Below, piece by piece: positions 23,598-51,023 of a DNA stretch of 64,000 nt (within the stretch, counting starts at the first letter, position 1; each line of letters opens with the position of its first letter). The stretch is from Octopus vulgaris. Its lineage: Eukaryota. The translations under genes were made by a program, and so were the position numbers. Location: the NCBI GenBank assembly GCA_951406725.2, contig OX597839.1, positions 13,888,001 to 13,952,000 of the forward strand. The letters run 5' to 3'. The notes under the pieces are model-generated. The model saw only the letters and a program-made list of their open reading frames with translations, was not told the origin of the DNA and did not search any database.

Positions 23598-23828
23598 AAG
23601 GCGGCGAGCTGGCAGAAACGTTAGCGCGCCGGGCGAAATGCGTAGCCGTATTCGTCTGCCGTTACGTTGTGAGTTCAAATTCCGCCGAGGTCGACTTTAC
23701 CTTTCATCCTTTCGGGGTCGATAAATTAAGTACCAGTTACGCACTGGGGTCGATGTAATCGACTTAATACCTATGTCTGTCGTTGTTTGTCCCCTTTATG
23801 TTTAGCCCCTTGTGGGTAATAAAGAAAT
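23598..23828 (+). mobile_element. Full-length SINE S2 with Tx1-type tail and 15-bp TSD
   Basis: TSD AGGTTGGGACTGATA at 23583-23597 and 23829-23843. Tail TTTAGCCCCTTGTGGGTAATAAAGAAAT. Confidence 0.92.
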
Positions 23829-25141
23829 AGGTTGGGACTGATATATATATAACCCAAAAACCTTACACGTCGATGTTGTCTTATCACTTCACATCCTATC
23901 TTTTATTTTACGAAATGCCAACGAATCAAAGCGGTTATTCTTTTCTGTTTCATTGGTTAAATCTCACCTCATTGTGTTCCGTCGCTCCTTTACAGTAACC
24001 AATATTTATTGAGTATTAATCATATTAATTTGTGTCGCTGTTTCTTTCAGTGATACTAAATTCGGATTAGAAAAGAATATAAATTAGGAAACACCACGGC
24101 AACCTAGTCTGACGTGTTCATCAGGCGATCTGACACAGCTCTTGTAATATATTTAGTGTAAGTACTAATTTAATGTTGTGAAAACATTAATTTCTGTCAC
24201 AAGGCAAACAAACGGAAGGCAAAGGTGACTGTATCATACGATACATGATTCGAGAAGTGGTGCCAGGGAACGAAGAAAGGCGGTTCAACCGATATTTTAT
24301 GATGTTTAAAGAAGATAACAACTTTTAGTCACTTTGGTCCTTTGTAGTTTATGTTAGGTTAAGTGACATAAGGATAGACTAGTTAGTACATTGTGTGTGT
24401 GTGTGTGTGTGTGTACCTGCGTACGCATGTGTATATGAGTATGTGTGCGAGCCTGCACTTTAAAGTAATTTAAATAATACATACATACATGCAAACATAT
24501 ACATAAATAATAATCATGGATAAAATCTTTATAAGATTTTATCGAGTATCCAGCATGTAATAAACCACATAGGTAACAATTAATACAAGTAAATATAATT
24601 ATATAAATATAATTATAATAATAAGGGTATTAATGAAAAGCGCCACATGCTAGAAATAGATGCCAACTGGCTCTAAGGACTACAATTTATTTACTCCATT
24701 AGTATGGAGTGAAAGCGAGGAAAGTGAATAGAAAATATTTTTTAAAAGTTTAACCATAAATCGATTTCTAGTTTAGGGATGTAAAATCTTCTAGCCTTCA
24801 TGAATATGGTATGACAAATTGTTCATAATTATAAACATTTATACATACCAATACGAATAACTTGTATTCATAAGCATATATACAAACGTTCACATTTATG
24901 TACGAGCTAAATCTAATTTATCCACCTCAAACACGTGCATATATGGCTGAAAATAATACCGCAGTGAATATTTCGGTCGGAGCAATTTGAATTTATTTAT
25001 TTAATTATCGAGGATAAAAACTTTATTACATATATATATATATATATGTCGGTATGTATGTATATACCTACCTACATACACACACATATGTAAATATATA
25101 TACATGTAAATACACGTATAAATATTTACATCTACATCTAC

Positions 25142-25172
<31 letters not shown>

Positions 25173-26449: not shown

Positions 26450-26922
26450 GGATCTTTTCGGTTTGAACGGCAGTTTTTAAAAATAATTTCCACGTAACTA
26501 AACACTTTTAAACTTCGTATACTGGTAGAATGTGTTTATAAAACATCTTTTTCTCTTGGCTTTATTGAGAAAATTCTATAGTTTGTATGATATTTGTTGT
26601 TTTTTCTTCAATTTCTGCAATTTCAACCAATCAATGACGTCTATTGGGGTGAAAACATTCTGTGCCGTATGAATATGTCCCTCGTTTAAGAAACAGATTG
26701 GGTTTATATACATTTTTGAAGAAAAAAAGATACCCGTCCAACAACCCCACCCCTAACCCTAACCCTAACTAACCCCAACTAACCCCAACTAACTCTAACT
26801 AACCCTAACTCTAACTCTAAAACAGATTGAAATGCAATAGATCAATACTAGGGTCACAATTATGGGTGACAATTTCATATGACATCGCTAGAAAAAAACT
26901 GCCGTTCAAACCGAAAAGAACC
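26450..26922 (+). mobile_element. MITE with TIRs of about 29 bp and an 8-bp TSD (Merlin-like), nested in an older relative
   Basis: GGATCTTTTCGGTTTGAACGGCAGTTTTT...AAAAACTGCCGTTCAAACCGAAAAGAACC. TSD ACATCTTT at 26442-26449 and 26923-26930. Confidence 0.85.
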
Positions 26923-28222: not shown

Positions 28223-28513
28223 GCGCCCTTTTCAAGCCTAGCCAGGCTCATGGGTTTCTGTGGCGTATGTGTTCCCCCCAGCTGGACGGGACGCCAGTCC
28301 ATCGCAGCGTAACTTAGGAAACAGGAAGAGAGAGTGAGAGAAAGTTGGGGTGAAAGAGTACAACAGGGGTCGCCACCAACCCCCTGCCGGAGCCTCGTGG
28401 AGCTTTAGGTGTTTTCGCTCAATAAACACACACAACGCTCGGTCTGGGAATCGAAACCACGATCCTCCTACCGCGAGTCCACTGCCCTAACCACTGAGCC
28501 ATTGCGCCTCCAC
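28223..28513 (-). mobile_element. tRNA-derived SINE family S3
   Basis: Head GTGGAGGCGCAATGGCTCAGTGGTTAGGGCAG...TTTCGATTCCCAGACC. Confidence 0.8.
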
Positions 28514-29087
28514 ACTATAACTATACCCGTATCCTTAAACAACAAGACCCTTCTGGCTGCCTTTCTGTCATTTACCCGGCTGTCCTCCTTTAACAAAAGT
28601 CGCAATATATGTCAAAGCACCAAAATTTTGGGTCTCAGCTTATTTATTCCATTATTCCATAATTCTATGGGACCGGAATATTTGTAGACAAGGGAAGAAT
28701 AAAAAATGACGGCTTGACACGTTATAACCGTGTGAAAGTTATTGATATTAGAAATATAACATCAAAGTACTAAATGTCTTTAAGCTGCGTCTCTGTCTCT
28801 CAGCCTTGAAAGAAAACCATTTGTTCAGGGCTTAGAAATAACGGTGAATAGCTTGATAAAGAAGATTGATCAGGGTTTGAACTGGTTCTATTATGCTCCG
28901 TTTGGAGGGCTTAACTGTTCGCTTGTTTTCATTATTTTTAGGTTTCTATTAAAATATTTTTGTGAACATTGGGCGCGGCAATTTATTGAATTAGATAAAG
29001 TCAATATTGGTTTTGATACATACCAAAGCACTGTAAATATTCGTATAGGACCGTGTGAAACGCGAACACTCAGACAACAACAACGGA

Positions 29088-29285
29088 GTGGAGGCGCATT
29101 GGCCCAGTGGTTAGGGTAGCGGACTCGCGGTCGTAAGAACGCGGTTTCCATTCCCAGACCGGGCGTTGTGTGTGTTTATTAAGCAAAATCACCTAAGCTC
29201 CACGAGGCTCCGGCGGGATGGGGGTGGTGAATCCCGCTGTACCCGTTCACCCCAACTTTCTCTCACTCTTTCTTCCTACTTCTGT
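29088..29285 (+). mobile_element. SINE S3 5' part
   Basis: Same head as 31122. Confidence 0.78.
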
Positions 29286-29632: not shown

Positions 29633-29671
<39 letters not shown>

Positions 29672-29873
29672 GAGAGAGAGAAGCAGAAAGATACATATAT
29701 AGAGTGCAATAGGTAAATTGTCACCATTTTATATTTATATTTCGCGCATGCGCATTACTTGATTTTAATTTTATCGACTACACAGTATAGTAGGGTCAGC
29801 TGGGCACGGTCTGTGAGAAAAACAGCACCATGACGCAATTCACTCTGCAGAAATTTGGAAATGACGCGCTGTA

Positions 29874-30978
29874 CTGATGGGCCGGGAGCTTTTCCTGGCT
29901 TCATTCCCTTAATTGCCTTAACTACTACGGAGCTATCTATACGGATAGATGGTCCTTCTACTGGGTCAACATTTGGCAGGCTCTCCTCCTCCCACTCATT
30001 CTCCACATTCAGCAGTCTCACATAGTGGCTTCTCCAAGCCTTTTTCTTTTCAGAATCACAAAAAGCAAGTGTCCCATCATCCATTCGAACACATTTCTCC
30101 CCAGTGACATCACAATTTTCTCTCACACACTGTCTTGCAATCCGAAATACCTCAGTTCATTGGTCCTCACGTCTCTGGACATTGGCAAACTTCTTCTTTT
30201 CCGCTACGCTCTTGGCTATGTATACCTGCCGCCTAGCCTCCCTTCTGGCTACCTGGTACCATTCCCTGCTACCCCCATCCTTCCAGGCTTTCCAGGCTTG
30301 TTTCTTTGCCCTGATGGCCTTGTCTACTGTACTATTCCACCGCCATGTAACTCTAGGTCTGGAAGGGACTTTGCACCAGCCACAGACTTGGTCTGTGGCG
30401 CTCAGTAAGCTGTCCCGTAGGAATTTCCAACTACCTTCTATGTCCGATGTCTGTAGCTCCTCCTCCCTCTCCTCAAATTTCTTGATGAGGATGTCCCTAA
30501 ATCTCTGACCATGTGAAGGGTTCTTTAGCTTCCAAATCCTTCTTTTTTGGATTGGTTTGCTTCTTGGTAGCCTTCTGGCCTCGAGCCTAAAGTCACTAAT
30601 GACTAGCCTATGCTGGGGGGTACATTCTTCACCCGGGAGGGTCTTTGCATTTAACAGCAACCCTGCGTCCCGCTGTCTGGTGAGGATGAAATCAATCTAG
30701 CTAGAAGAGTCCCCTGATTGATAGGTTACCAGGTGGCTGTCTGGCTTCCTGAAGTTAGTGTTGCAGATTAGAAGGTTACATGCATCACAGAATTCCAGTA
30801 GCCTAGTTCCCTCATCGTTTCGAGTGCCAATACCACAGCCACCGTGTACCCCAGTGAAGATACCTGCTTCCTGCCCGACATGCCCATTAAAGTCTCCAGC
30901 CACAAAGATGAGGTCATTGCCACTCGTCTTTGAGGTAGCCTGTAGAAGGGTGTCATAAAAGTGGTCCTTCTGATCATT
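29874..30978 (-). pseudogene. RTE-clade LINE fragment (APE endonuclease to start of RT)
   Basis: VAGDFNGHVG, GTRNDEGTRLLEFC, NTNFRKP, IDFIL, QHRLVISDF and MKPGKAPGPS, with stops and a frameshift. Confidence 0.9.
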
Positions 30979-31121
30979 TCTAGAATTCCCACTGTTTAAT
31001 TCCACTTCTATTAGAATATCGTCCCAAAGCAAACTTGCTTGTTCGTGGCGCTAAACTCGCTTCCGGTTGCAGCTTACTGTTTAAAAACCCTTAGTCTCAT
31101 TGTGCTTCCTCCATTCCTTTA

Positions 31122-31507
31122 GTGGAGGCGCAATGGCCCAGTGGTTAGGGCAGCGGACTCGCGGTCATAGGATCGCGGTTTCGATTCCCAGACCGGGCGT
31201 TGTGAGTGTTTCTTGAGCGAAAACACCTAAAAGCTCCACGAGGCTCCGGCAGGGGATGGTGGTGATCCCTGCTGTACTCTTTCACCACAACTTTCTCTCA
31301 CTCTTACTTCCTGTTTCTGTTGTACCTGTATTTCAAAGGGCCGGCCTTGTCACTCTCTGTGTCACGCTCAATATCCCCGAGAACTACGTTAAGGGTACAC
31401 GTGTCTGTGGAGTGCACAGCCACTTACACGTTAATTTCACGAGAAGGCTGTTCCGTTGATTCGGATCAACCGGAACCCTCGTCGTCGTAACCGACGGAGT
31501 GCTTCCA
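31122..31507 (+). mobile_element. Full-length SINE S3 with 11-bp TSD
   Basis: TSD CCATTCCTTTA at 31111-31121 and 31508-31518. Confidence 0.88.
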
Positions 31508-31780
31508 CCATTCCTTTACCGAACGATGTCCGAGACGATGAGCTAAGACTATTTCTTTCTTCTATCTCATTTTCCCATTCCTGGTTTCATTTCGCCGTTA
31601 ATACCTTAAATGTTTAATTACTAATCAGCTTGTATGTTTCTTTTTTCTACCAAGTGTTAATTATCGGCAATGCCCCTCCCCCACAAGATAAAATTAATTT
31701 CTAGAATTTCGTTAAGTAAATTATTCGTTCCCCCACTGTTTAATTCCTTTTCTATTAGAATATCGTCCCAAAGCAAACTT

Positions 31781-31924: not shown

Positions 31925-32148
31925 AGATATATATATATATATGATAGATATATAGATATATGATAGATAGATATATGATAGATAGATAGATAGATAACTT
32001 TTTATTGTAGCTACACAGGGCTAAACACAGAATAAAAATGGACGAAATACAATGTAGAATTTTTCTTTTCGAGGTGGGATGGGTGGGGCACAAAAAAAAA
32101 ACACGTTTGATCAATAGGGATCTGTGGGTTGTGTGGTGTATAAAAAGG

Positions 32149-32215
<67 letters not shown>

Positions 32216-32331
32216 TCACAGTTTAGGTGTAGCCTTGGAAAGGAAAACCTACAAAAAAGACCAAGGTCACCTCAGACAATTCGAAAAAGAACACATGAGT
32301 AAGTTGCCTTACTTCTCGTTGTCTCTTTTGG

Positions 32332-35300
32332 TTACAGATTTATGCTTAAAATAGTGTCGTCTTTCATACTGACCATTTTTGCCACTTTTACCCACTTTTT
32401 ATTAAAACATTCGTTCGACAAAGCCTTCCTCTCTATTCTCATCCTCCTTTTCAAGTGGTGCTTGAAAAAGTTGACGAGAGACTGACCAGAGAGGAAGGTG
32501 TTTGTTTGCAGTCCTTTCAAACGCGTCCACCACACACATTCTTTCGCCATAGCCATCAGCGTAACGAAAACCGTTTTCCCTTCCCGTTTAAAGGAAGGTG
32601 GTGGAACAATAACCACGATAGACTCGGCCGATAGGCGAGTCCGACCTACACGTGACAACAGCTGTTTGACGAAGGACCACAGCTCTGAAATATCTGGACA
32701 CTGCACGAGTGCGTGCAGAACGGTTTCGTCGCTCTGACCGCATCTCGGGCAGGTCGGTCCGGCGATGGTTTTCGAACCGTGTCTGTAGCTCTTCTCTCGA
32801 ACAGGTAGTGCGTCTCGATAGCACTGCCAAGCCAGGGATTTCTAGAAGTTATCCATAGGCCCCGGCCCGAACGTCGTCCTGAACAGGCGGGTTAGGAATT
32901 CTTCGTCGACGCCCAGATTTGCCCCGAGTGTGTCGTCGGACCTCCCCTCCACTAGTCCTCTATAGAACGCTTTAGTCGCTTATAAGTTGCACAAGTTTGA
33001 CCCCGGTCAGCAGAGCTGCTGTAGAGCTTGGCGACACTCTCGGTGCCAATCGCCCAGTTTCGGTCTCTTTTTGATCCACGTTTGCAGTTCGGTCAGTGAG
33101 ACGAGCTGCGGGAAGTCGCGCCTCACAAACGGCGCCCACACCTGTTCACCGTCGTCGATGAATTTCCAGAGATGTCGCAGTCTCAGCGCATGCCTGCGCA
33201 TCATCAACCACGGCATGCCCAGTCCTCCATTCAACGGATGTTGACAGCAAATGGACTTCCTCACCATCGGAACGCCACCCTTCCACAGGAAGCGGAAGAG
33301 TATGCGTTCCAGTTTGGTGATGGTGGCGTCGGGACAAGGTACGACGGTCAGGCGGTAATCGATGACGGATGCGATGTACGCGTTCGCCACCTCCGCCCGG
33401 CCTTTTAGAGACAGCTTTCTCTCGGCCCATGTTTGGCTGAGAGCGACCACTCTACTCGTGATCTCGTCCCAGTTCTTATCCATTTGGAGGTCCGGACTGA
33501 ACCAGACCCCGAGCAATTTAACCGGTCCGTCCGTCCAGCGTCCCACTACTGAGCCGCAGTCGGACGGCATGGGCTTGCTTCTCCAGGTGCCGAGTAGCAA
33601 ACCCACTGACTTTTCCGGGTTAATCTTTGCTCCCGTCACCGTTTCGTATTTTCTTAGTGTCTCGCCTATCATCTTGATGTGTTTGTCGCTCGACACTATG
33701 ACGGTGACATCGTCCGCATATGCCGACACGCTCGTCCCGCAACCCAGTTCCCGTGGGATGCCCCTCAGTGTCGCCAGCTTCCGCAGTAGCGGCTCGAGAG
33801 TCAATACATACAGAAGCGCCGACAGGGACACCCCTGACGGACCGAACGCGTGATGTCAAACGGTTTCGACAGGTGACCGTTCACCCGAATCACCGATCGG
33901 ATGCCGCTATACAAGGCAGCGATCCAACCGCGGAAGACGGGACCGAAGCCAGCCGCCCTGAGGACGGCCGCCAAGTACCGATGGTCGACCCTATCGAAGG
34001 CTTTAGACTGATCCAAATTTATCAGCGCCCCACCCATGCCAGGATCCTTAACTACCCTGTCCACAATGTAGCGCATCAGATGGAGGTTGTCATGTATGGT
34101 TCTGCCCGGCACGGTGCATGTTTGCGCCCGTCGACCAGTTTACCAATGACAAGCGCCAACCTCTCGGCTATTACTTTGGCCAAAATTTTCAAATCTGCGT
34201 TGAGCAGAGTGATGGGCCTGAAATTATCTATAAAATTCCCCTTGTTTGGGTCTTTCTTCAGCAACGTCACTGCACCTCGGCTCACGAAACCGGGGATTCT
34301 CCCGTTTTGTTGCCAGTTGCAGTAGACTGATGCCAAGAGGTCGCCAAACAAGTCTGGCATTCGACAATACAGCTCGTAGGGTAAACCATCCAATCCAGGC
34401 GACTTATCCCTCGCGCAGCCCGCCATCGCATCCCACACGTCAGCGGCTGTAATGGGACTTTCACAACACTCCGCTTCTCTTGCCGAGAGCCGCGGCAGGT
34501 CGGTCAGGTAGGCACTGAAATCCATCCCGCGTTCCGACCCACCACTCGCACCAAACAGTCGAGCAAAGTGCTGTTGAAAGGCCTCACACATCCTTTCGGG
34601 TTCGAGTAAACTGCATCCCTGTTGATCTATTAGAGACCGAATGGTGGCTCTGTTGTCACGCTGCGCCTCCGCTACCCGGGCCTCTCGCGCAGCTTCAATC
34701 CCTTCGTTCCTTAAGGCACGCATTTTAGCTCTGACGACGCAACCTTCGTGCTTGGCGTTGAGGTGTTGGTCGAGGGCCATCCTCGCAGCCAGCACGCCTC
34801 TTCTAGTTTCTTAACCAAGTCTCCCTCTACTCTATTTCGTTTTATCGCTAATTCCTTGCTAAACCTAATTGATTCCGATTGTCATTTTCAGGGCGTACCA
34901 CCAGCGGTTGTTAACGACTGCTCCCGTCAGCGCCCTCTTAATTAACTCGCTAATCCGGTTCCTGTAAACCTGTCGCGCTAACAGCGACGTGTTAAGTTTC
35001 CAGTAACCGGGACCCTGCCTATGTGTTTTATCTAAGTCGAGCGTACACGTAACAAATTTGTGATATGTGTAGCTGACTATTTTAAATTGTGGACATCCTA
35101 CACTATCCCTATCCGCTGTCCTGCATAGAATTCTATCTAGATAAGATCTCGACGATCCGACGCGGTTTGTCCAAGTCCACGTTGGCACGTTCGGATGGTC
35201 GAGTCGGAACCTGTCAGACAAATGGAAACGTCTGAGCAGGTCTTTGAGGCTCTTACACTCCCTTCTATTCCTATCCCTTCCCACATAATCTAGATGCGTG

Positions 35301-35749
35301 TCCAAGTTAGCGTTCCAATCCCCTACTAACAGTAAAGGTCTAGACGTACCCAGGAAAACCTCTAGACGTCTGAAGAAATCCGCCCGACCCGTTAAGGACG
35401 GTGCATAAACTGCCATCAGACGGAATGCACACCCATTTCTGCCATCCACGTCGAAGACAACCAGCCTACCCTCCGGGTCTAGGAATATTGCTCTTACTTT
35501 TACCTTTAGACTCTTTCGAAAAAGCACCGCAGTACCTCCACCACCCATGTTCGACAGACAAGGAGAAAAATAAATGTCAAATTGATTGCCAAACATGGAC
35601 TCGAAGGCCCGCGGCTTACTGAGTCTGGTTTCACTGATAGCTACTATATCCACATCCAGTGACTTGATGTCGTTTAGAAGGTAACCTTGCTTCCAAGCCG
35701 ACGCCAAGCCACGCGCATTCACACAACCTAATTTAAGCATACTTGACAT
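32332..35749 (-). pseudogene. Element A ORF2: APE endonuclease, reverse transcriptase and C-terminal Zn finger, frameshifted
   Basis: GCVNARGL, AISETR, VGDWN, SYLDRIL, PGYWKLN, KSPGLDGLP, NFRPITLLN, DQSKAFDRV, VRQGCP and AYADD, split over several ORFs. Confidence 0.93.
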
Positions 35750-35806
35750 TTACGAAAATTGTGTTTTACACACTACATTAGAAGAGACAAGAAGCAAGAA
35801 GGGAGG

Positions 35807-37869: not shown

Positions 37870-37944
<75 letters not shown>
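37870..37944. repeat. (GATA)n microsatellite flanking the element A 5' end
   Basis: Pure GATA run. A degenerate GATA run at about 31921-31996 lies on the other side. Confidence 0.97.
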
Positions 37945-38253
37945 GTGTGTGTGTAGACGCAGGCTCAGCTGTGTGCATAACAAGCCCGATTCCAAAATCT
38001 CATGGTCTTGAGTTCAGTGCCATTGCGCGGCAAATCTCTTTTTCTTTTATTACGGTCCTGGTCCACCAAAAACTTTATGAGTGGATTTAGTGCACGGAAA
38101 CTGAAAGAAGGTCTCCATGGCAGTTCGGCCACATAGAAACCGATTGCATAGAAAAACTAAAAATAAAAAAAAAATAAGTACTGGCACCGATTTGTGAGAT
38201 TAAAGCCGTCAAGGCAGTGTCCCAGTACGGTCGGTCTAATGAGACGATAAAAA

Positions 38254-38342
38254 GTCTTTCAAGGGAAATAACTCTAGCTCTACTATTAAATACTCCTACG
38301 ACGTATTTAATAGTAGAGCTCGAGTTATTTCCCTTGAAAGAC
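38254..38342. repeat. Hairpin inverted repeat with 40-bp arms
   Basis: GTCTTTCAAGGGAAATAACTC...GAGTTATTTCCCTTGAAAGAC. Confidence 0.88.
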
Positions 38343-38961
38343 AAAATTATCGTATCGTTAACAAACTCCATTTCAAATGTATGTTTTTCATTGTGATTCT
38401 TTGTTTCTTTACTAGCCACAAGGACCCAAAATAGAAGGGGACAAACAAGGACAGACAGGACACCACAGAGGGGACAAAATATAAAACGAATATGAATGAG
38501 ATGATTATATAGCAATGAGGTTATGAATGGCTACATGCGCCCCTCATCACGTGCAGTACTATTAATCTTTTTTTTTTTACAGTCCATTTTTATCATGTAC
38601 AAGCAATATCGCCCGGCGTTGCTCAAACCTTTAGAATTGGAATTTTTGAAAAGTAAAAAATTTGCATTATGTAGCTTGTTATTCTCTTTAAGTGAACATT
38701 TTTCTGGTTGAAATACACCGAAAAATGACGACACAGTAATAACAAAATCGTAAAAAATAGGGATTTTCATAGAAAAAAAGCACTTTTTGATGTAAATAAT
38801 TTTTGGTCTTAACATTTGAATTTTTTGAATTTTTTCTTCTACGATTTAAATTTTTTCTTCCACAGAAGGAAGAGCAAGCCTTCTTCTACCATACTCTCAA
38901 TTTTGGTCAACTTGCGCCGCAGGGTTTCGGAGAAGATAGTGTTAGTTGAAGGCTACCAACC

Positions 38962-39697
38962 CTTGATTTTTTATTATCCATAAGGACATACATGGAATGG
39001 ACGATACAATCACGGATGATTTGACATTTAAAGCGCAATTTGGGGTCGATAAAAAAATTTAACATGATTTTATATAAAATAAATGAATAAACAACACAAT
39101 GGACATTTTTTAAACAAATGGAGTGGGGCGGGTTTACGGACCCCACGAACCCCGCCTCTTCACTGACCTCGGTTTTTTGGCTTATCTCGCATCCACGAGA
39201 GACCTTTTATACATGACATTCTTCCATCTTTCATCAAACACTTTCTTACTCAGGCACCTCCTCCCCAGCCTTATTTGTCTCTTTAGGTGGAATATAAAAA
39301 TTTCCACCAAACCAGGAGCAGAGATGAAGTTGTCTGACATCAACCCTCTCATCCTTGTTTTCCATACTACCTGTTTCGCAACTGCAACCACAGAGAAAAA
39401 ACAATTCTTACCTTCTTTCGTTAAGAAATCCGGCGGGTCAATTTTCACTATGGATTCAGACGATAGCTGTCCTCCACCTGACAACAGTTGTTCGGCAAAA
39501 ACCCACATGTCTGACACCTCCGGACACTGCACAGATCGGGGTGTCGTGGCCACTATGCCTTGAGAGTTTATCCCGAACAGGTAAGGCACCTCGGTAACAC
39601 TGCCATGCCAAGGACTTCTGAAAATTATCCAGGGTCGAATGTACCTTAGAACAGTCTGGCCAGCTGATTATCGTCGAAACCTAGGGTCTCCCTTAAT
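38962..39697 (-). mobile_element. F1: 5'-truncated 3' fragment of a B-related Tx1-like LINE
   Basis: Reads ETLGFDDNQLA...NFQKSLAWQC...CPEVSDMW...FHLKRQI, followed by a degenerate tail. Confidence 0.88.
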
Positions 39698-41608
39698 GTT
39701 GTTTTATTATTACCCACTAGGGGCTACATAGATGGGACAATACAATCGGGAAAATGAATAATGAATTATGAAGTTTGTACAATGTGGTGTAATGCCCACT
39801 CGATCCCCGAAATCGAGCGGTTACATTTCGTCATTTGTTTTTTATTCGTCAACAATATTTTCCAAATAAAACATTTTATACATTTTCAACATACATTTCA
39901 AAAATTTTACAAAGTTCAACATTTTTTTTTTTTTTTTCAGGATTTAAAGTTCTTTTTATCATTTCCAAATTAAGTTTTCACAATACCTTTTCTTTTATAT
40001 ATACTCCATTATCTCTACCAAATCTGAGTAAACTTCCATCGTTCGTGGCCACCTTGTAAGTCGGCATTTCATATGTTTTGACACGTTCTTGCCAGCTGCC
40101 TCGATGAACGCCTCGGCGTCGTTCTCGTGGACGAGTGCACCTGTTTCTTTCCATTCGGTGCCCATCCTGACCCACGTATATCCATTTGTTACGTTTATTA
40201 AATCTTCCATCTCCTCACAGTGCCTGTGATGGATCAACGTTCCATAGTATTTGAATTTTCTATTCGTACCTACGTTTTCTCTAGTTTTTCTCTTAGGACT
40301 TACTTCCTCTTTTTTCTCCTCCCTCGGTTTCTCTCTTTCTCTCTTTTTGCTTTCTCTTCTTTCTTTTTCCTTCTCTTGTCTTTTTGGCTCTTTGTCTGCC
40401 GTCTCTCTACCCTGTGCCTTAAGTTCCTTTCCTGTTGTTTCTTTTCCTTTTTGCATACCATCTTTTCCTTTCTCTTGGTTCTGTTCCTTCGCTTGTTCTT
40501 TTCCTGCTTTTTCTCTTTCCTTTAATGTACTTTCCTTTTCTTTCTCTTGCTTCTGCCTTGGCTTCTTCTCCACTACTTCTGCACCCTGTGAATTTTGCTC
40601 CTTTTCTACTATCTTCTTCCCTTTGTTTTCATTTTCCTTCAGTGCGCTGTTACTTCCCTTCTCTTGTTGTTTCTCCGTTATTTCCTTTTCCTTGTTTTCA
40701 CTGTTCTTTCCTTCGTGTTCGTTTTCCTTCTCTCCACTTTGTGTCTCTTTTTGCTCCGCTGTGAATTCATACAGCGGGCATTCCTTTTTTATGTGCCCTC
40801 TTGATCCGCACAGGTAGCAATTCGGTTTTCTGCCTTCCACTATTACACTAATTGTTTTCTCGTTTTCTATTTCTATTTGGAAGGGAAATCTTTCGATGTC
40901 TTCTATTGTGGCCATCAGCCACAACTCTACTCCGAATCCCTTCCAATTTACAACGTTCGTCTCCTTAATTGACCCTATTTCTACTTCCTCTTTTGCTGCC
41001 CCAATAATGGCTGTTACCAGCATTTCTGTTTTAATATTTGGGGGCACCTTTGGGACTCTTACCCGTACCCCTCGTCTTCCTTTATACGTCGGCCACATGG
41101 TGAAATTTTCCGCTTTCAAGACAGTGGAAGCCAATGAGGCCGCCACTTCCTTTGTTGCGCATCTCACCTCCACCGTACCATATTTCTTTCCTCTGTCTAC
41201 AAAAGTCGCTTTTTTCATGATGTCCCCCAGACATTTCTCTATTTCTTCAATCGTCACTCTCACCAGTTTTCTCGTGTTTCTATCTTGCGTTCTATACGTT
41301 ATCGTCTTGTTATTTTTCTCTTCTATTGTTTCCACAGGCGGGACCAGCTTTACGCTGTCACCCTCCCTTTTGACGAACTTCTCGTATTCCTTCAATTGTT
41401 CTTTTCTAAAGAACACTTCTTTTATTCTAAGAGACTCGTCACTTTTTGTTGTGGCGACCCCCGCGTAAGTCTCCATGACTTGAGGGTCGACACACCTTCT
41501 ATAAAAGGTTCAAACACGCAGCGGCAAACGCCTCGCGCGATTAAATTTTTTGATAATTTTTAACAGTTTTTTTTCCAATTTTCACATACAAAATAACTCA
41601 CAACACAC
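39698..41608 (-). mobile_element. Element C: ORF1-only half-LINE
   Basis: Short 5' UTR, intact 493-aa ORF1, and a 3' UTR of about 300 bp ending in the B-type tail GCCCCTAGTGGGTAATAATAAAACAAC. No EN or RT. Confidence 0.85.
39995..41476 (-). CDS. ORF1-like nucleic-acid-binding protein (element C)
   Basis: RGKKYGTVEVRC, IVEGRKPNCYLCGSRGHIKKEC and a K/E-rich linker. The ORF is intact. Confidence 0.85.
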   Translation of the reverse strand: METYAGVATTKSDESLRIKEVFFRKEQLKEYEKFVKREGDSVKLVPPVETIEEKNNKTITYRTQDRNTRKLVRVTIEEIEKCLGDIMKKATFVDRGKKYGTVEVRCATKEVAASLASTVLKAENFTMWPTYKGRRGVRVRVPKVPPNIKTEMLVTAIIGAAKEEVEIGSIKETNVVNWKGFGVELWLMATIEDIERFPFQIEIENEKTISVIVEGRKPNCYLCGSRGHIKKECPLYEFTAEQKETQSGEKENEHEGKNSENKEKEITEKQQEKGSNSALKENENKGKKIVEKEQNSQGAEVVEKKPRQKQEKEKESTLKEREKAGKEQAKEQNQEKGKDGMQKGKETTGKELKAQGRETADKEPKRQEKEKERRESKKREREKPREEKKEEVSPKRKTRENVGTNRKFKYYGTLIHHRHCEEMEDLINVTNGYTWVRMGTEWKETGALVHENDAEAFIEAAGKNVSKHMKCRLTRWPRTMEVYSDLVEIMEYI

Positions 41609-43359
41609 GTGGGTAGATTTCTATTTCTTTATTACCCACCAGGGGGCGACACAGACATGGGGACATAGAACATTATAATTTAAAATTTATGAAAAATGAA
41701 TTGTTAAGTGAAAGAAAATGATAGTATGAAAGCGATACCAACGGCCCCATCCGTTAGCATCACTTACCTGTCCTTTGTTTTTCATAGTCACTTGAATGTT
41801 CTTTGCCAATACGAATAAATTCCATATCCATTCTTACTCCGAAATACTCATCCATATTTTCCACGAATTCATCGCTCATTCTTATATCTTTCACCTCCCA
41901 ATTGTCCCTTTCACACCTCACCATAAACTCACCTATGTTCTTCTTTTCAATCACAGCATACCTAGTCTCACCAACATCATACCATTTATACTCTTCCATT
42001 AGACTTTTAACTTCTTTCTGTTCAGTCATAGTACAAATGTACGGCCTGATATCGATTTCAATCTCTTGTGTGTGTGTATTCTTTTTTTTCTTTTGTTTTC
42101 TTGTTGGGTGGGAGCGGGTGGGTTCAATGTCTGCATGGATAGGGTGGGACTCAGAGGGCGTGGGTGGTTTTGGGGTAGATTGGTGTTCCATATTATTTTC
42201 TTTTCCACGTATTCTTCTCTTCCTCTTATTTCCAGCTTCCTTCCATTTCTGTGTATTCTCTTCCTCTTCTACTGTCTCCTTCTCCTCTGGTTTCTGCTTC
42301 TCTCTCTCTGGTTCGGAATCCATTTCTTTCCCTGGGGGAGGGCAGAAGGCTCTTATGTGACCCCTCAGGCCACACTTGTAACAACGTGGAGCCCTGCCCT
42401 CCACCCACACTCTCATGATCACGTCTCCCAATCTGATGCTTTCCGCCAGGTCCAACAGTACCTCGTTCTCCGCCTGTACGTTCAGCTCCACTGTTACGCC
42501 TCTCCAGCCCTCGGACTTAACCGAGGCATGGAGAATATCCACTTCGTCCTCGTGGCCGCTGATCACAGCCGCCACAATCCATTCTGCCTCCACGTTTGGT
42601 GGCACTCCCTCCACCCTTATTCGTGTAATCCTCCTGTTTAAATACGTAGGTAACAGTGTTACCTTTTCTGACTTCACCGCCTTCGCCGCCATCTTCCTCG
42701 CTGCAGACTCAGTTTTGAAATGCACAACTACGGTTCCGTACTTGGATCCTCGAGTCAGAAAATTAATTTCCTCCTCAGTTCTTCGCAGGGCTTCCTCTAT
42801 CCATTCCATGGTTACAACTTCTACCCTCTTCCTTTCGTTTGCGAACACCCTGTAAATAATGGTCCTCTTATCATACCATTCTTTTCTCCTGGGTTTTCGG
42901 TGATAGTTCCACCTCACCGCTTTCCTTTTTCATGTATTTCTGGTAACTTGGCAACTTGGCTATGTCGACCCCTTTCTCTTCCGCCTTCTTGCTTACACCG
43001 GCATAGGTATAACTCAGCTTCTCTTCCAATTTCCTTCCTGCCATTTCTAGCTCCTTCTCAGACGTAGACAAGTCTGATAAAGACTCGAAAACTCCAGCCT
43101 TTTCCTCCATCAGCTTCACTGCAATTGCCTGTTCCAGTTCCTCATCCGTCGTGGACAAGTCTGTTAGAGACTCATAGTCCATTTCCTTCTGTCTGACAGA
43201 CCGAAAACGGCCGCCAAAACAGAAAAAGTGTAACGCGCTGAACGAGCGAAACGCGAAACCGCGTCAACGCCGTTCAGAATTTCCACAACAACAACAACGC
43301 TTTCTGTTCTTTTTTACCGAATTTTACGAGCGTAAAAAAACACGACCGAACTCAAACAC
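41609..43359 (-). mobile_element. Element D copy 1: full-length ORF1-only half-LINE (one frameshift near 42900)
   Basis: ORFs 42871..43182 and 41760..42917. 5' end GTGTTTGAGTTCGG; tail GGTGGGTAATAAAGAAATAGAAATCTACCCAC. Confidence 0.87.
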
Positions 43360-43691
43360 GTGGGTAGATTTCTATTTCTTTATTACCCACCAGGGGGCGA
43401 CACAGAGGGGGACACCACAAGACATGGGGACATAGAACATTATAATTAAAATTTATGAAAAATGAATTGTTAAGTGAAAGAAAATGATAGTATGAAAGCG
43501 ATACCATCCGTTACCATCACTTACCTGTCCTTTGTTTTTCATAGTCACTTGAATGTTCTTTGCCAATACGAATAAATTCCATATCCATTCTTACTCCGAA
43601 ATACTCATCCATATTTTCCACGAATTCATCGCTCATTCTTATATCTTTCACCTCCCAATTCTCCCTTTCACAACTCACCATAAACTCACCT
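43360..43691 (-). mobile_element. Element D copy 2 (5'-truncated)
   Basis: Last 330 bp or so of D with a complete tail. Confidence 0.88.
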
Positions 43692-43695
43692 ACAC

Positions 43696-44217
43696 GTGGG
43701 TAGATTTCTATTTCTTTATTACCCACCAGGGGGCGACACAGAGGGGGACACCACAAGACATGGGGACATAGAACATTATAATTAAAATTTATGAAAAATG
43801 AATTGTTAAGTGAAAGAAAATGATAGTATGAAAGCGATACCAACGGCCCCATCCGTTAGCATCACTTACCTGTCCTTTGTTTTTCATAGTCACTTGAATG
43901 TTCTTTGCCAATACGAATAAATTCCATATCCATTCTTACTCCGAAATACTCATCCATATTTTCCACGAATTCATCGCTCATTCTTATATCTTTCACCTCC
44001 CAATTGTCCCTTTCACACCTCACCATAAACTCACCTATGTTCTTCTTTTCAATCACAGCATACCTAGTCTCACCAACATCATACCATTTATACTCTTCCA
44101 TTAGACTTTTAACTTCTTTCTGTTCAGTCATAGTACGGCCTGATATCGATTTCAATCTCTTGTGTGTGTGTATTCTTTTTTTTCTTTTGTTTTCTTGTTG
44201 GGTGGGAACGGGTGGGT
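43696..44217 (-). mobile_element. Element D copy 3 (5'-truncated)
   Basis: Last 520 bp or so of D with a complete tail and an 8-bp deletion between GTAC repeats. Confidence 0.88.
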
Positions 44218-45011
44218 GGAGGGCAGGGCTCCACGTTGTTACAAGTGTGGCCTGAGGGGTCACATAAGAGCCTTCTGCCCTCCCCCAGGGAAAGAAATGG
44301 ATTCCGAACCACAGAAAGAGAAGCAGAAACCAGAGGAGAAGGAGACAGTAGAAGAGGAAGAAAATACACAGAAATGGAAGGAAGCTGGAAATAAGAGGAA
44401 GAGAAGAATACGTGGAAAAGAAAATAATATGGAACTCCAATCCACCCCAAAACCACCCACGCCCTCTGAGTCCCACCCTATCCATGCAGACATTGAACCC
44501 ACCCGCTCCCCCCCAACAAGAAAACAAAAGAAAAAAAAGAATACACACACACAAGGGATTGAAATCGATATCAGGCCGTACATTTGTACTATGACTGAAC
44601 AGAAAGAAGTTAAAAGTCTAATGGAAGAGTATAAATGGTATGATGTTGGTGAGACAAGGTATGCTGTGATTGAAAAGAAGGACATAGGTGAGTTTATGGT
44701 GAGGTGTGAAAGGGAGAATTGGGAGGTGAAAGATATAAGAATGAGCGATGAATTCGTGGAAAATATGGATGAGTATTTCGGAGTAAGAATGGATATGGAA
44801 TTTATTCGTATTGGCAAAGAACATTCAAGTGACTATGAAAAACAAAGGACAGGTAAGTGATGCTAACGGACGGGGCCGTTGGTATCGCTTTCATTTTATC
44901 ATTTTTTCGTTTAACAATTCATTTTCATAAATTTTAATTATAATGTTCTATGTCCCCATGTCTTGTGGTGTCCCCCTCTGTGTCGCCCCCTGGTGGGTAA
45001 TAAAGAAATAG
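44212..45011 (+). mobile_element. Element D copy 4 (5'-truncated, + strand)
   Basis: Runs from WVEGRAPRCYKC to the tail GGTGGGTAATAAAGAAATAG. Confidence 0.88.
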
Positions 45012-45810
45012 ACGATAATCAGCTGGCCAGTCTGTTCCGACGTACGTTCGAGCCGAGGACACTGGACAACTTCCAGAAGTCTCTGGCATGGCAATGCTAC
45101 AGAGGAGCTCTACCTGTTCGGGATAAACTCGCAAGGCACGGTGGCCAAGACAGTCCGATATGTCCAAGATGCGGGCGGGATAGGGAAACCGTCCCGCACG
45201 CTATTGTTCATTGTCCGGACGTGTCTGAGGTGTGGGTTTATGCCGAACAGCTGTTGTCAGGTACACGAAGAGTACAGCTGTCGACTGAGTCGATTACAAA
45301 AATTGACCCACCGGATTTCCTCGTGAATGAAGGTAAGTTTCGTTTTCTCGTTGTAGTAGCAATTGCGAAAGAGGTGATATGGAAGACGAGAATGAAAGGT
45401 TTACAGTCAGGCAAGTTCATCTCCGGCCCTGGTTTGATGAAGTATTTCATCTTTCACCTGAAAAGGAAGATAGGGCTGGAGAGAATATGCCTGACTAGGA
45501 GAGTGTATGAAGAACGATGGAAGGATGTAGCACGAAAGTTGCGAGTGAAAGATACAACATAAATGTAATACCAAGCGCAACCAAAAGTATCAGTGGGGAG
45601 GCGGGGCTCGTGGGGTCCGAGCTAAACCCGCACCCACTCCACCCGTAATGTCTTCCGGTCTGTCCCATCATTCGATTTCTGTCCATTTATTGTAATTCAT
45701 GAAAATTTTTAAATCCGATTTATTGTAAAAACCCATTCGTTTGTCTGTCCCCATCATCAGATTGTATTGTCCCATCTATGTTCGCCCCTTGTGGGTAATA
45801 ATAAAACAAC
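45011..45810 (+). mobile_element. F2: 800-bp 3' fragment of LINE B
   Basis: Near-identical to 50224-51023, with scattered SNPs. Confidence 0.92.
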
Positions 45811-46051
45811 ATTAAGGGAGACCCTTGAACACATGGAGGAAATCAATTTTTTGCGTGTATAGTAAGTTATTATATTGTGTATATTTTCTCCATTGTGATC
45901 TACTGTGTGTCTAGCTGTCTTTTTGTGTTGTTGTACAACGATTGAAGTCGGCCTTCGTGCGAGGGCTTAGTGTTGGTGTTCCCCCCTCCGTGGGGGAAAA
46001 ACTATCATTATCTTGGTTGTGCCAAGGGCTTGCTAAAGCCAGTTATCGGAG

Positions 46052-47368
46052 ATGGAATCCCCCATCTCTGATTCACCTGTGACAAGTGATACAGGATCAC
46101 CGGCGGTGTCACCAAAGAAAAGAGAGGCGGGGTCGCCAAAGAAAAAAGATATTCCAGCACCAGCGAGAAAATTTTCTGAAGTAGCTGGGAAGAAAATTAA
46201 AAAAATTAATGTAGACAACCTGGGAAAACATGCGGACTGTGTGTCAAAAGAGGGCACGGAAGTAACCGTGGCTTCAAACGCCCAAATACAGGAGGAAATT
46301 TCGAATAGGAGAATAATCTATAAGACATTCAGTATAACAAGCAGAGCAATCCAAAAAATAGAGGAGAAAAAGATCGAAAACTGCTTAAAGCCAATAATGG
46401 ATAAAATTACGTATATCAATCGAGGGAAGAAATACGGCACAGTGGAGGTGAGATTCACGTCAGAGGAGGTAGCGAAGAAGCTATCCATGGAACCCATAAA
46501 AGCGGAGGATATTGTTCTCCTACCCCTGTATAAAGGCAAGAGAACTTCCAAGATCACAATGAACAACATCCCGCCAGAAGCGGATGCCGAAATCCTAGTG
46601 GCAGCAGTTATGGTAGGCCTGGAGGAAAAAATAAACATCCTCCAGGCCACCGTAGAAGAAGAAGAATTCTGGAAAGGGCAAAAGATAATAATAGCCATAC
46701 AAGCTGAAGTACAAACCCTGGAAGAGATCCCAGAGACTCTAAGGATAAGCGAAGATGAAAGAGTCACAGTCTTCGTAGAGGGCAGAAAGCCGAGGTGCTT
46801 CGGCTGCGGTAAGAAGGGGCATGTAAGGGCGGAATGCCAGCCCCAACCCAAACCGCAGGAAGCAGCTCAGCCAAGTGGAAAAGAAGAAGCCGTGTCATCA
46901 GAAACAGCGCTGGTCGGCCCAGGAGGGACGACTGAAGGTGTGGAGGTGACAGAGGCAGCGGAACCAACGGAGGAGGAAAAAAAGAGCGAGGAAACGAAAA
47001 AGGAGGAGGGGTGGTCAAAAATCACTAGAAAAAAAAGAAAAACTGAAACCACCCCTCCCAAAGTAAACCAAAAAAAAAAAAGGGAGTCATTGAACTCATT
47101 TATGGCCGTTAAGGCCACGAACAATAGACTCGGAAATGTGTTGGCAGCGATGGCCAAAGTAGAAAAAATAGGGAGGAAAAACGACTATGTTTTGTACAGA
47201 ATAGGCCGGAAGGATTACGGACGGATAAAGTCCGAATTTTTCCATGACGTAGGCCCGCTCAGAATGGATATAACATCTCCATATATATTCGAGGGCCTAC
47301 GTCAGACTCCCCCACGAGGCCCAGAAAAAGAGAAGGAAGAAGAAGAAAAAACCGAACCACTGATATAA
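46052..47368 (+). CDS. Element B ORF1 (438 aa, CCHC knuckle)
   Basis: RGKKYGTVEVRF, LLPLYKGKR and FVEGRKPRCFGCGKKGHVRAEC. Confidence 0.88.
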   Translation: MESPISDSPVTSDTGSPAVSPKKREAGSPKKKDIPAPARKFSEVAGKKIKKINVDNLGKHADCVSKEGTEVTVASNAQIQEEISNRRIIYKTFSITSRAIQKIEEKKIENCLKPIMDKITYINRGKKYGTVEVRFTSEEVAKKLSMEPIKAEDIVLLPLYKGKRTSKITMNNIPPEADAEILVAAVMVGLEEKINILQATVEEEEFWKGQKIIIAIQAEVQTLEEIPETLRISEDERVTVFVEGRKPRCFGCGKKGHVRAECQPQPKPQEAAQPSGKEEAVSSETALVGPGGTTEGVEVTEAAEPTEEEKKSEETKKEEGWSKITRKKRKTETTPPKVNQKKKRESLNSFMAVKATNNRLGNVLAAMAKVEKIGRKNDYVLYRIGRKDYGRIKSEFFHDVGPLRMDITSPYIFEGLRQTPPRGPEKEKEEEEKTEPLI

Positions 47369-47377
47369 AGGTAAGTA

Positions 47378-50300
47378 ATGGATTACATTTATGTTGGTTG
47401 TTTAAATGTGCGCGGCCTGGGAGCAGGCTGGAAGCAAGGTCGCTTCCTGCATGATATCAGGTCGCGTAATTTAGATGTTATTGTTGCTACAGAAACCCGG
47501 TTAGAGGGGCCAAGAGGTCTACTCCCGCTGTTTGACGGCTACGAGAGTTTTTTCTCTCCTGGCAGTCCTACAGGCGGGAGTGGGGTGTTGGTCCTATTAA
47601 AAAGAAACCGGGTTTCTGAGAAAAAGTTAATTTTTGCAGATCCAGAAGGTAGGCTGGTCGTCATGGATTTGACGTTCAGTAACGGTAAAGTTATCAGACT
47701 GGTTGCAATTTACGCACCCAACAGTACAGGGCAAAGTGATTATTTTCGTGAACTAGAAAACTTTCTTGGTACTTCGCATTCATTAGTGGTGCTAGGAGAC
47801 TTTAACACAATTTGCAAAGCGGATGTAGATTGTGTTGGCTCGCGTCCAGATAGAAAAGGCAACAGTGGCTTCATGGAACTGCTAAGCCGCTTTGAGCTAG
47901 CAGATCCTTATAGGATGGAATTTCCGAACGCTCCATTGTGGACATGGTCAAACAGCGACGGATCTTCCAGGTCATATCTAGATAGAATACTAATTAGAAA
48001 AGTAGACAGTAAAATAGCTAAGTGTCCACAGTTTTACCCGATCAGCTACAGTGATCATAAAATGGTCACTTGTAAGCTTGACATAGATAAGGTTAAAAAT
48101 AGAGGATCCGGTTACTGGAAACTTAATACGTCCCTTTTGGCGATTAAGGAGTACAAAGACCGGATTAGGAATATAATTCAGAGGGCACTATCTGGTACCA
48201 TCATTAATAACAAATGGTGGTACGCCCTCAAACGAGCCATCAAGTTTGAGTCTATTAGATATAGCATAGGAGTAGTGGCTAGAGAGGCTAGAAGGGAAAC
48301 TATTCTAGTTAAGGAATTAGAGGAAGCCATGAAAACTGGCTCTGCGGCTCAGGTGGCGGCCAAGAGACTGGTGTTAAACCAGCACCTCGAGGCCAAACAC
48401 ATGGGCTGCATTGTCAGGGCTAGAATCCGTCATATGGGATGTGAAGGAATCAACGCCGTGAGATGGGCCCGAGTGGTGGAAGCTCAGCATGGTAACGATG
48501 CCACGATTCGATCTTTGACGAACCAACAAGGTGAGTTGATAAACGAACCCGAGGAGATGTGTGAGGCCTTTCAGGAGCACTTCGCTCAGCTTTTCGGTGA
48601 GTGCGGCGGACTGGATAGAGGAGGAGGGCCTTTACGGACCTACTCGACGGTCTGCCGCGCTTATCGGGGCGAGATGCGGAGGGCTGTGAAGGGCCAATCA
48701 CGCCTGAGGAGGTGGTTGAGGCAATGGCGGACTGCGGCGCGGGCAAGGCGCCGGGTTTGGATGGTCTACCCTATGAGTTATATAAGAGTATGCCAGACTT
48801 GTTCGGGCACCTACTGGCGGAGGTCTACGCGAACTGGCAGCAGAACGGGCTTATACCCAGATCTGTGCGCCGGGGAGTAGTGACTCTCGTCAGAAAGGAC
48901 CCGAGCAAGGGGGAGTGCATTGATGATTTCAGGCCCATCACTCTGCTAAACACAGAGTTGAAGATTTTGGCCAAAGTGTTATCGAAAAGATTGGCGCGTG
49001 TCGCGGATGGTCTGATCGGAGGGGCACAGACATGTGCCGTTCCGGGCAGATCCATTCAGGATAATCTCCATCTAATGTGGTACACTATAGAGGGGTTTAA
49101 TAGTGATTCTGGCAAGGGTGGGGCACTGGTCCATTTAGACCAATCTAAAGCTTTTGATAGGGTCGACCATCGTTACCTGGTATCTGCCCTGGCACAGTTC
49201 GGGCTGAGCCTTGGCTTCCTCAGGTGGATTATCGAAATTTATGATAACATCGACTCGGTAGTTCGGGTGAACGGCTTCTTGTCGAAGCCGTTCAAAATCA
49301 AACGCTCGGTTCGTCAAGGGTGTCCGCTCTCCCCGCTTTTGTACGTGATGGCTCTTGAGCCATTACTGCGAAAACTGAGCGGCATCCCGAGACAGCCAGG
49401 TAATGGAAAATCAGTGTCAGCGTACGCGGATGACATCACCATCATCGTAACCGAAATGGACCACCTATGTAAAGTAGGCAAGGCCATAGAGGTTTACGAG
49501 ACGGTGACAGGAGCAAAAGTGAATCGCGAAAAGTCAGTCGGCTTGCAACTCGGCACCTGGAGAGGCAAGTCGATGCCTCCTGACAGCGTCGTGGGACGTT
49601 GGACGGAGGGTCCGATTAAACTGCTAGGGGTCTGGTTCGGTCCAGACCTCCAAATAGAGAAGAATTGGGGCGAGGTAACGAGCAAGGTGGCTGCAGTAGC
49701 CAAGACCTGGTCTTGGCGGTGGCTATCCCTGAAAGGGAGGGCGGAGGTGGCCAATGTGTTTATCGCATCGGTTATCACCTACCGCCTTTCCGTCGTTCCT
49801 TGCCCTGATTCGTGGTTGATCAAGTTGGAAAGACAGCTCTTCTACTTCTTGTGGAAGGGCGGGAAACCACTTGTGAAACGCTCTACTTGCTGTCAACAAC
49901 CGTTAAAGGGTGGGCTAGGGATGCCTTGGCTGATGATGCGCAGACATGCGCTGAGGTTAAGACATCTGTGGCTCTACCTGGATGGTGAACGGGTGTGGTC
50001 TTCGCTAGCAAAACTGATGTTTCCCAAGTTCACTAGTTTCGGTGGATGGGAAACCTGGCTGAATCGTAGATCGAAACTTGGTACTTGGTACACGGAGTGT
50101 CGCAAGGCTCTCCTGCTATTCCGTCGCTCGGGCAACGCCTGCGGTGGGGGTTCCACCACATTCTTCTATAGAGGGTTGGTAGAGGCGGAATGTGAAGATA
50201 CCTTGGGGGAAACCCTAGGTCTCGACGATAATCAGCTGGCCAGTCTGTTCCGACGTACGTTCAGGCCGAGGACACTGGACAACTTCCAGAAGTCTCTGGC

Positions 50301-50775
50301 ATGGCAATGCTACAGAGGAGCTCTACCTGTTCGGGATAAACTCGCAAGGCACGGTGGCCAAGACAGTCCGATATGTCCAAGATGCGGGCGGGATAGGGAA
50401 ACCGTCCCGCACGCTATTGTTCATTGTCCGGACGTGTCTGAGGTGTGGGTTTATGCCGAACAGCTGTTGTCAGGTACACAAAGAGTACAGCTGTCGACTG
50501 AGTCGATTACAAAAATTGACCCACCGGATTTCCTCGTGAATGAAGGTAAGTTTCGTTTTCTCGTTGTAGTAGCAATCGCGAAAGAGGTGATATGGAAGAC
50601 GAGAATGAAAGGTTTACAGTCAGGCAAGTTCATCTCCGGCCCTGGTTTGATGAATTATTTCATCTTTCACCTGAAAAGGAAGATAGGGCTGGAGAGAATA
50701 TGCCTGACTAGGAGAGCGTATGAAGAACGATGGAAGGATGTAGCACGGAAGTTGCGAATGAAAGTTACAACATAA
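47378..50775 (+). CDS. Element B ORF2: APE endonuclease, RT and Zn finger, with a single frameshift near 48620
   Basis: GCLNVRGL, LGDFN, SYLDRIL, SDHKMV, KAPGLDGLP, DQSKAFDRV, RQGCPLSP, AYADD and CPRC...HAIVHC. The 3398-nt span is one base short of an open frame. Confidence 0.92.
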
Positions 50776-51023
50776 ATGTAATACCAAGTGCAACTAAAAG
50801 TATCAGTGGGGAGGCGGGGCTCGTGGGGTCCGAACTGAACCCGCACCCACTCCATCTGTAATGTCTTCCGGTCTGTCCCATCACTCGATTTCTGTCCATT
50901 TATTGTAATTCATGAAAATTCTTAAACCCGATTTATTGTAAAAACCCATTCGTTTGTCTGACCCCATCATCAGAATGTATCGTCCCATCTGTGTTCGCCC
51001 CTTGTGGGTAATAATAAAACAAC

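Follow-up and report, generated by a model that had tools for sequence, protein, structure and literature searches.

A 64,000-nucleotide (nt) stretch of the Octopus vulgaris genome (assembly GCA_951406725.2, contig OX597839.1, positions 13,888,001 to 13,952,000 of the forward strand; hereafter the window) carries long interspersed elements (LINEs), "half-LINEs" that encode only the first LINE open reading frame (ORF1) and copies of a tRNA-like short interspersed element (SINE). From sequence comparison, we consider it probable that a radiation of L1/Tx1-type LINEs, the half-LINEs and the SINE share a stringent 3' tail made of a hairpin, AATAA and 7 further nt, with no poly(A). Element labels A to D are those of an earlier note on this DNA; E to R denote further LINE and half-LINE families named here, S2 is the SINE copy discussed most closely and L with a number designates a locus in the genome.

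According to this reading, the protein of the second LINE reading frame (ORF2p) would bind the tail hairpin and begin reverse transcription at a fixed distance from it. Transcripts would run through the tail into the flank and be primed internally, and non-autonomous elements would retain or renew the tail to recruit ORF2p. B inserts independently into a Helitron-like element, with a copy of the site left on either side, so that later B, C and D copies accumulate head to tail.

A conserved tail at the 3' ends

The common motif was found at the ends of B, C, D and S2, where the earlier note had placed it, and LINE A carries the looser variant described there. Allowing at most two mismatches, we counted the motif 11 times in the window, whereas 100 shuffles gave 0.08 on average (maximum 1). 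Of the occurrences beyond the ends already quoted, one lies in a B 3' fragment (45011-45808), three are tails of other D copies and three belong to other SINE copies. Another tail variant, which had been overlooked, is found on a third LINE fragment, E (38964-39697). We took the best 30 genome matches for each of the B tail, D, C, S2, E and A. Because the flank changes among these copies while the tail persists, the tail is part of the element, which agrees with the claim that the motif belongs to the RNA rather than to the target.

A search of the genome for the zf-RVT domain gave 150 scored matches, 100 of which were fetched as 7-kb stretches; the tail could be anchored in 79 of these 100 loci and the other 21 were left out. 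A hairpin of at least 4 base pairs (bp) abutting AATAA was present in 39 of 41 distinct LINE tails compared with 42% of shuffles, a generous count in that the anchoring pattern favours such hairpins outside cluster R. Family R retains the hairpin in unrelated sequence. The 4-bp GCCC/GGGT stem ascribed earlier to every element except A appears in the minimum-energy fold (60-nt windows) of B and S2, but not in that of the other elements.

Thirty family-level tails, picked for diversity, were aligned by sequence only with MAFFT and analysed with RNAalifold, which predicted three pairs, each with double-sided changes. The 3-bp core was paired in 90% of cells (68.7% when shuffled) and there were 26 double-sided changes (8.5 when shuffled); 0 of 500 shuffles got as high, a count that is not a probability because the rows are related and were picked for diversity. 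Slid controls of the alignment were 27-62% paired. Measures that count pairs or pair types in the same alignment gave no gain over shuffles (320 and 313 of 500). The hairpin core thus covaries across the 30 tails; a test of covariation had been proposed in the earlier note.

The statement that the elements lack poly(A) also held, the longest run of A past the tail being 7 in 79 LINE and 90 SINE tails. Exact target-site duplications were obtained for 35 of 73 anchored LINEs, after the microsatellite families P and Q and matches longer than 25 nt had been dropped, and for 40 of 90 SINE tails. By hand count, the duplication begins 7 nt past the hairpin-proximal AATAA in 21 of the 35 LINEs and 25 of the 40 SINEs. 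An offset of 6-7 nt accounts for 26 of 35 and 29 of 40, respectively, and most of the remaining cases have a mismatch near the junction. The distance of the junction from the motif is the same for LINE, half-LINE and SINE. Since no poly(A) is copied, priming may be internal and set by the hairpin. LINE duplications have a median length of 17 nt (n = 35).

LINE families that carry the tail

B and A contain endonuclease, reverse transcriptase and zf-RVT domains (Pfam), both with frame breaks, and an intact copy of family K has the same domains. These elements thus have the organisation of the L1/Tx1 group, with an ORF1 and an ORF2 that encodes an APE endonuclease, a reverse transcriptase and a C-terminal zinc domain. 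The best match of the LINE ORF2 among solved proteins is human L1 ORF2p (E = 4e-66), with R2 behind (E = 4e-26). Tx1-like insertion into repeats or DNA transposons with long duplications was seen in A, in B and in the LINE duplications, and is relaxed in K and part of B. No protein named Tx1 was among the results of the protein homolog searches and the cluster look-up. We infer membership in the Tx1 clade from anatomy and targeting, with trees that hold octopus copies only. Thirteen active L1-Tx1 families are listed for O. vulgaris in PMC13282606.

The 100 fetched loci fall into 7 clusters, to which the clade tree (115 of 123 rows kept) adds E, J, H and A, and 24 of the 100 have an open frame of at least 1050 amino acids (aa). 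The tail is common to 7-10 L1/Tx1-type LINE lineages and is not one LINE's own. The 3' ends of A lie in (TATC)n in 30 of 30 copies, the B copies nearest the window nick at AC (30 of 30) and E nicks at WGG in 15 of 16 tails, with a second Helitron-like repeat as its flank at 7 of 17 loci. The E and B endonucleases are 75% identical. Two families target microsatellites with the same tail plan, P in (TTA)n (L331, L353, L375) and Q in (TC)n-like repeats (L345, L350, L359). Elsewhere in the genome, four tandem zf-RVT matches lie ~5.4 kb apart (G000:C2:73046133-73062761) and score equally with the fetched family R copies; this is likely another self-targeting array.

Half-LINEs with ORF1 only

The only product encoded by C, D and F is an ORF1 homologue, which shares 35% identity with B ORF1 over 210 aa. 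The C ORF1 matches named O. vulgaris proteins at up to 97-98% over short stretches. The ORF1-only organisation recurs at 30 C loci (1.9 kb) and 30 D loci (1.7 kb), and solo copies are bounded by 18-nt duplications. In a tree of 73 half-type and 68 autonomous ORF1s, the half-type sequences group into two deep clades, one of D and one of C with F, and a further branch, separate from the autonomous ORF1s. The dN/dS of the half-LINE ORF1 core was 0.07-0.13 against three related subfamilies and 0.09-0.30 within families; uninformative were 1 of 7 values within C (that of L084, 0.29) and the C-F and D-L297 pairs, which were saturated. Judged by these ratios and the tree, the half-LINE ORF1s are old lineages evidently under purifying selection.

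The last 49 nt of C score 46.5 of 49 against B. Tail variant 1 of C goes with duplications that start at AC (15 of 15) and variant 2 with AT or AA (13 of 14), the copies not all being independent, and B subfamilies with the same tail variants show the same duplication starts. These observations support a pairing of C with LINE B in the ~49-nt tail and in targets (two Helitron sites), subfamily matched to subfamily. D tails are variable and nearest to those of families K and N, and D bodies that are 94-96% alike nevertheless carry several tail variants.

Helitron-like targets and the growth of arrays

One repeat follows 19 of 30 B, 7 of 29 C and 3 of 29 D copies; after most of the other copies, the next sequence is the 5' end of a further array member. 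This host repeat is ~1.05 kb long and has a Helitron-like 3' hairpin and CTAG. Among empty copies, the 3' signature is present in 21 of 27 and the strict 5' pattern (TC after A) in 12 of 27, the latter blurred by TA repeats. Within the host lies a decayed, ORF1-like remnant from this LINE group that contains the main insertion site, including in the empty copies (L142-L169). One variant of the site occurs at all 19 filled B loci but in only 6 of 27 empty copies. The Helitron site of B is also used by C and D.

When loci were collected with the left part of the repeat, 27 of 30 were empty. At the 19 filled loci, the median difference was 0.4% for B and 7.0% for the host (~17 times more divergent), host divergence exceeded B divergence in 171 of 171 pairs and the two were uncorrelated (rho -0.01). 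Filled and empty hosts interleave in the tree, and array contents differ among loci. Because the hosts diverge far beyond B, without correlation, and because filled and empty hosts are interleaved, the B insertions must have been independent and targeted. Each B insertion leaves a copy of the site and therefore gives rise to head-to-tail arrays of mixed content. The 5' ends of B and C (window 45826-45845; L067-L075) keep leftover copies of earlier target sites, which suggests that transcription starts upstream of the element.

The SINE and its partner

SINE S2 (23598-23829, plus strand, 232 nt) consists of a tRNA-like head with A and B boxes followed by the shared tail. The A-box pattern is present in 54 and the B-box pattern in 60 of 62 full copies, and the ends pair like an acceptor stem; ARAGORN and Rfam found no tRNA in the SINE. 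The 15-bp duplication reported for S2 is real: its copies (23583-23597 and 23829-23843) are 15 nt long, or 14 nt when the leading A is assigned to the SINE, with the start at GGT. Across the 5' copies of 40 SINE duplications, the first four positions are G, G, T and A in 28, 33, 33 and 33 cases, respectively. The start distance is that of the LINEs, and the nick is unlike that of B and one base off that of E. The SINE frequently inserts into another SINE at about position 54, giving tandem dimers (window 21792-22002 and 57180-57529; L109, L111, L116-L118).

The SINE alignment spans 48 nt of the B and K tails, and the LINE tail nearest to that of the SINE comes from a B-cluster copy, followed by K. 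The 30 nt before the stem match family M, so the SINE tail may be mosaic or ancestral. Family M was considered as the partner on account of this match and rejected, because 33 further M-type loci start pyrimidine-rich or at AT and none at GGT. Sorting 83 SINE copies by flank gave only two weakly diagnostic columns. We conclude that the SINE is likely to use ORF2p of the same LINE group, probably outside B's usual mode of targeting.

S2 is presumably one of the octopus tRNA-derived SINEs OK, OR1 and OR2. These SINEs were reportedly described by Ohshima and Okada in 1994, and the names OR1 and OR2 appear in papers that cite this work. No named LINE partner was found in the literature covered.

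Weighing the shared-tail reading

Several points weigh against a common stringent tail as set out above. The conserved hairpin core is only 3 bp, the 30 tail rows are mutually related and hand-picked, and none of 8 single-sequence folds beat its shuffles (z from +0.15 to -1.68), so the claim of structure rests on covariation and not on folding energy. AATAAA could have been retained as a polyadenylation signal. Since all samples were drawn from the best-scoring matches, they favour young copies, and duplicates or neighbours from one array occur among them. The nick of the SINE is at GGTA, compared with AC or AT for B and C, and both this nick and the shorter duplications also set the SINE apart from D; SINE duplications are 7-19 nt long, with a median of 14 nt among those of at least 11 nt, versus 17 nt for LINEs (p = 0.01). 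Finally, an abundant LINE with both the SINE's end and its nick was not found genome-wide: there were 3 exact matches with B/K/N-type tails and 6 with GGAT-stem tails, 3 of the latter being mutated SINEs.

The earlier note had proposed that a single Tx1-clade reverse transcriptase with stringent recognition drives all three tiers. Stringent recognition is made likely by the covarying hairpin, the RNA-borne motif and the equal junction distance. A single reverse transcriptase for the three tiers is not supported as written, because the SINE nick differs from that of B and C and because sister LINE families with different targets share the tail. The comparison of duplications and nicks across tiers, in which a difference was to count against the idea, was likewise divided: B and C agree, but the SINE departs from them in its nick and in its shorter duplications.

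The SINE could instead be driven by a sister family with its own endonuclease, namely the E lineage, with the shared tail loosely accepted across families. We regard this as a credible alternative that falls somewhat short of being probable. The E nick is one base off GGTA, with an exact match at L178, the E and B endonucleases are closely similar, and the resemblance of the SINE pre-stem to family M would fit a mosaic or ancestral tail. Nevertheless, the E tail scores lowest or nearly so against the SINE tail (12 vs 36), and the E copies in the sample (median 6.1%, minimum 3.2%) exceed in age the SINE copies that lie nearest (median 3.9%, minimum 0.4%).

Alternatively, the ORF2 of B might mobilise every tier, with the SINE nick set by read-through RNA from just beyond the tail that anneals to the nicked primer and would thereby favour sites resembling the flank of the mother copy; this seems possible but rather unlikely. 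The closest LINE tails to that of the SINE are those of the B cluster and then K, as this explanation would have it. Weak hints in its favour come from two B-family LINE copies (L418, L419) that end SINE-like and are followed by GGT, and from three SINEs (L100, L106, L119) whose 3' junction has flank letters missing from the 5' copy. Annealing of RNA flank has precedents in R1Bm and SART1 (PMC7265360), and in Bov-B the nicks of LINE and SINE are described as differing by one base (PMC13295347). However, the B copies nearest the window all nick at AC, L418 and L419 come from a search that required GG and are hence selected, and the copies of the SINE duplications agree in 36-38 of 40 cases at every one of the first four positions, which is expected of bases derived from the target.

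A related and equally tentative suggestion is that read-through bases past the tail, copied from the mother's site, help to choose the next target, so that the preference would be inherited through RNA, lineage by lineage. If the choice of target were guided by RNA in this way, one ORF2p would send the SINE to GGTA, half-LINE subfamilies to two Helitron sites and itself into self-renewing arrays.

It is less likely still that template switching or conversion in nested arrays spreads the ends, the tail being only a polyadenylation or termination signal and recognition being relaxed. The several tail variants on closely similar D bodies, the head-to-tail arrangement of elements and the canonical signal AATAAA are all compatible with such an origin, but no poly(A) is copied, the start lies at a fixed distance, stem covariation extends to families not seen in these arrays, such as A, and the dispersed SINE still carries the tail. 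The notion that the motif is a genomic target, or that the LINE-in-Helitron loci are one founder spread by co-amplification of the Helitron, is highly improbable and was rejected (the founder for B): one flank is common to 19 of 30 B copies, and flanks are also shared among L062, L064 and L067 and between L014 and L015, but the motif lies within the duplications at the element's end next to variable flanks, 27 of 30 Helitron loci are empty and array contents vary among hosts that are ~17 times more divergent than their inserts.

Organisation of the window

A single nested, twice-inverted array (38,964-55,330) contains the E fragment, C, several D copies, a B fragment, the full B, more D and F. 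It adjoins the second Helitron-like repeat, host of E (38590-38963, minus strand, left border approximate), whose like flanks E at the 7 of 17 loci mentioned above. The ORF2 of the E 3' fragment (38964-39697, minus), which has a variant hairpin, is probably the insertion site of the array: the same 17 nt of E ORF2 recur after C and after the B fragment, so the array probably started within the E copy. Then follow, on the minus strand, half-LINE C (39700-41610), with ORF1 only (39995-41476, CCHC knuckle) and a B-type tail, a full-length ORF1-only half-LINE D (41622-43356) and two 5'-truncated D copies, head to tail (43373-44217).

Past the first inversion breakpoint, the plus strand carries a D 3' part inserted in B ORF2 (44212-45010), the B' 3' fragment (45011-45808) and a 17-nt copy (45809-45825) of the E-ORF2 site found also after C. 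The full-length LINE B (45826-51021, plus) has a target-site copy at its 5' end, ORF1 at 46037-47368, ORF2 at 47375-50775 with one frame break, and the shared tail. It is followed by a D copy (51022-52708, plus) whose tail was lost at the second inversion, an inverted D part (52706-53624, minus) and the ORF1-only half-LINE F (53625-55330, minus), which is without 3' tail and has approximate borders on both sides. The inversion breakpoints, at 44212 and 52706, both fall within D copies of the array.

LINE A (31996-37870, minus) lies outside the array within a (TATC)n microsatellite; it is full length, with frame breaks in ORF2 and a loose tail. Two further SINE tails belong to a tandem SINE-in-SINE (21600-22002, plus; hairpins near 21792 and 21976, left border approximate), and a tandem SINE pair (57180-57529, minus) has the shared tail at 57306. 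Members of another tRNA-like SINE family (28318-28513, 29087-29285, 31121-31510) do not have this tail; B is inserted near the 5' end of a member of this family in L014 and L015, likely in one duplicated event. A decayed coding-like stretch at 29800-31000 (minus) resembles an older LINE fragment and had no Pfam match in the single frame tested. The window also contains three long inverted repeats (38237-38360, 55463-55761, 61848-61929) and a tandem repeat with a period of ~117 nt (63098-63558).

Comparison with known systems

The ingredients of this system each have a precedent, namely stringent tails, rare plant L1-clade pairs, Tx1 targeting of DNA transposons and ORF1-only LINEs. The head-to-tail arrays are reminiscent of HeT-A/TART. 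We found no report, in those parts of the literature that we covered, of these ingredients combined, of a Tx1-type SINE tied to its LINE by the tail or of a Helitron as target; repeat libraries (Repbase, SINEBase, the PMC13282606 library) and older papers may hold parts of the picture.

In the stringent LINE/SINE pairs of L2 (UnaL2, ZfL2), CR1 and RTE, a stem-loop 3' tail is described as common to the LINE and its non-autonomous partner (PMC3747384, PMC4176376, PMC4824008). The octopus elements likewise share a stem-loop tail carried by non-autonomous partners, but their LINE belongs to the L1 group and their stem is very short, the tail is followed by neither a terminal microsatellite nor poly(A), and it is common to many families that differ in target. 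Closer in clade are maize ZmSINE2/3 with LINE1-1_ZM and Chlamydomonas SINEX-3_CR with L1-1_CR, only three such SINEs being given in Ohshima's survey (PMC3472496, PMC3747384). In these pairs, too, an L1-type LINE has a conserved, covarying 3' hairpin that is also found on the SINE. They are plant and algal, however, and the algal pair is described as ending in poly(A), whereas the octopus system is animal, lacks poly(A) and has an extra ORF1-only tier.

Members of the Tx1 clade include Xenopus Tx1L in Tx1D, crocodilian Tx1-Mar with SINEU, Kibi and Koshi (PMC4494074). As described there, the clade resembles the octopus elements in targeting a non-autonomous DNA transposon at two sites and microsatellites, in nesting and in having different families drive different SINEs. 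By contrast, SINEU is said to end in poly(A) and to be tied to Tx1-Mar by target and not by tail, and the octopus host is Helitron-like, its site falling in a decayed fragment of ORF1 from the LINE group itself.

The ORF1-only non-autonomous LINEs HAL1, HeT-A and Ag-Sponge kept ORF1 and lost ORF2; those listed in PMC5786205 come from the L1, Jockey and CR1 clades, with none from Tx1. The octopus half-LINEs similarly keep ORF1 without ORF2, but they fall into two deep lineages, and the subfamilies of C follow those of B in both tail and target. The present case offers Tx1-type half-LINEs and a LINE aimed at a Helitron-like element, and the octopus LINE group is a candidate for the machinery that drives a very abundant SINE of this animal.

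PMC3472496 and PMC3747384 treat it as an open question whether the enzyme ancestral to the L1 clade required a structured tail or just poly(A), and their stringent examples are plant and algal only. This question becomes directly testable in the octopus, because its L1-group LINEs are an animal radiation that combines a covarying tail and the lack of poly(A) with intact ORF2 copies and natural substrates in trans.

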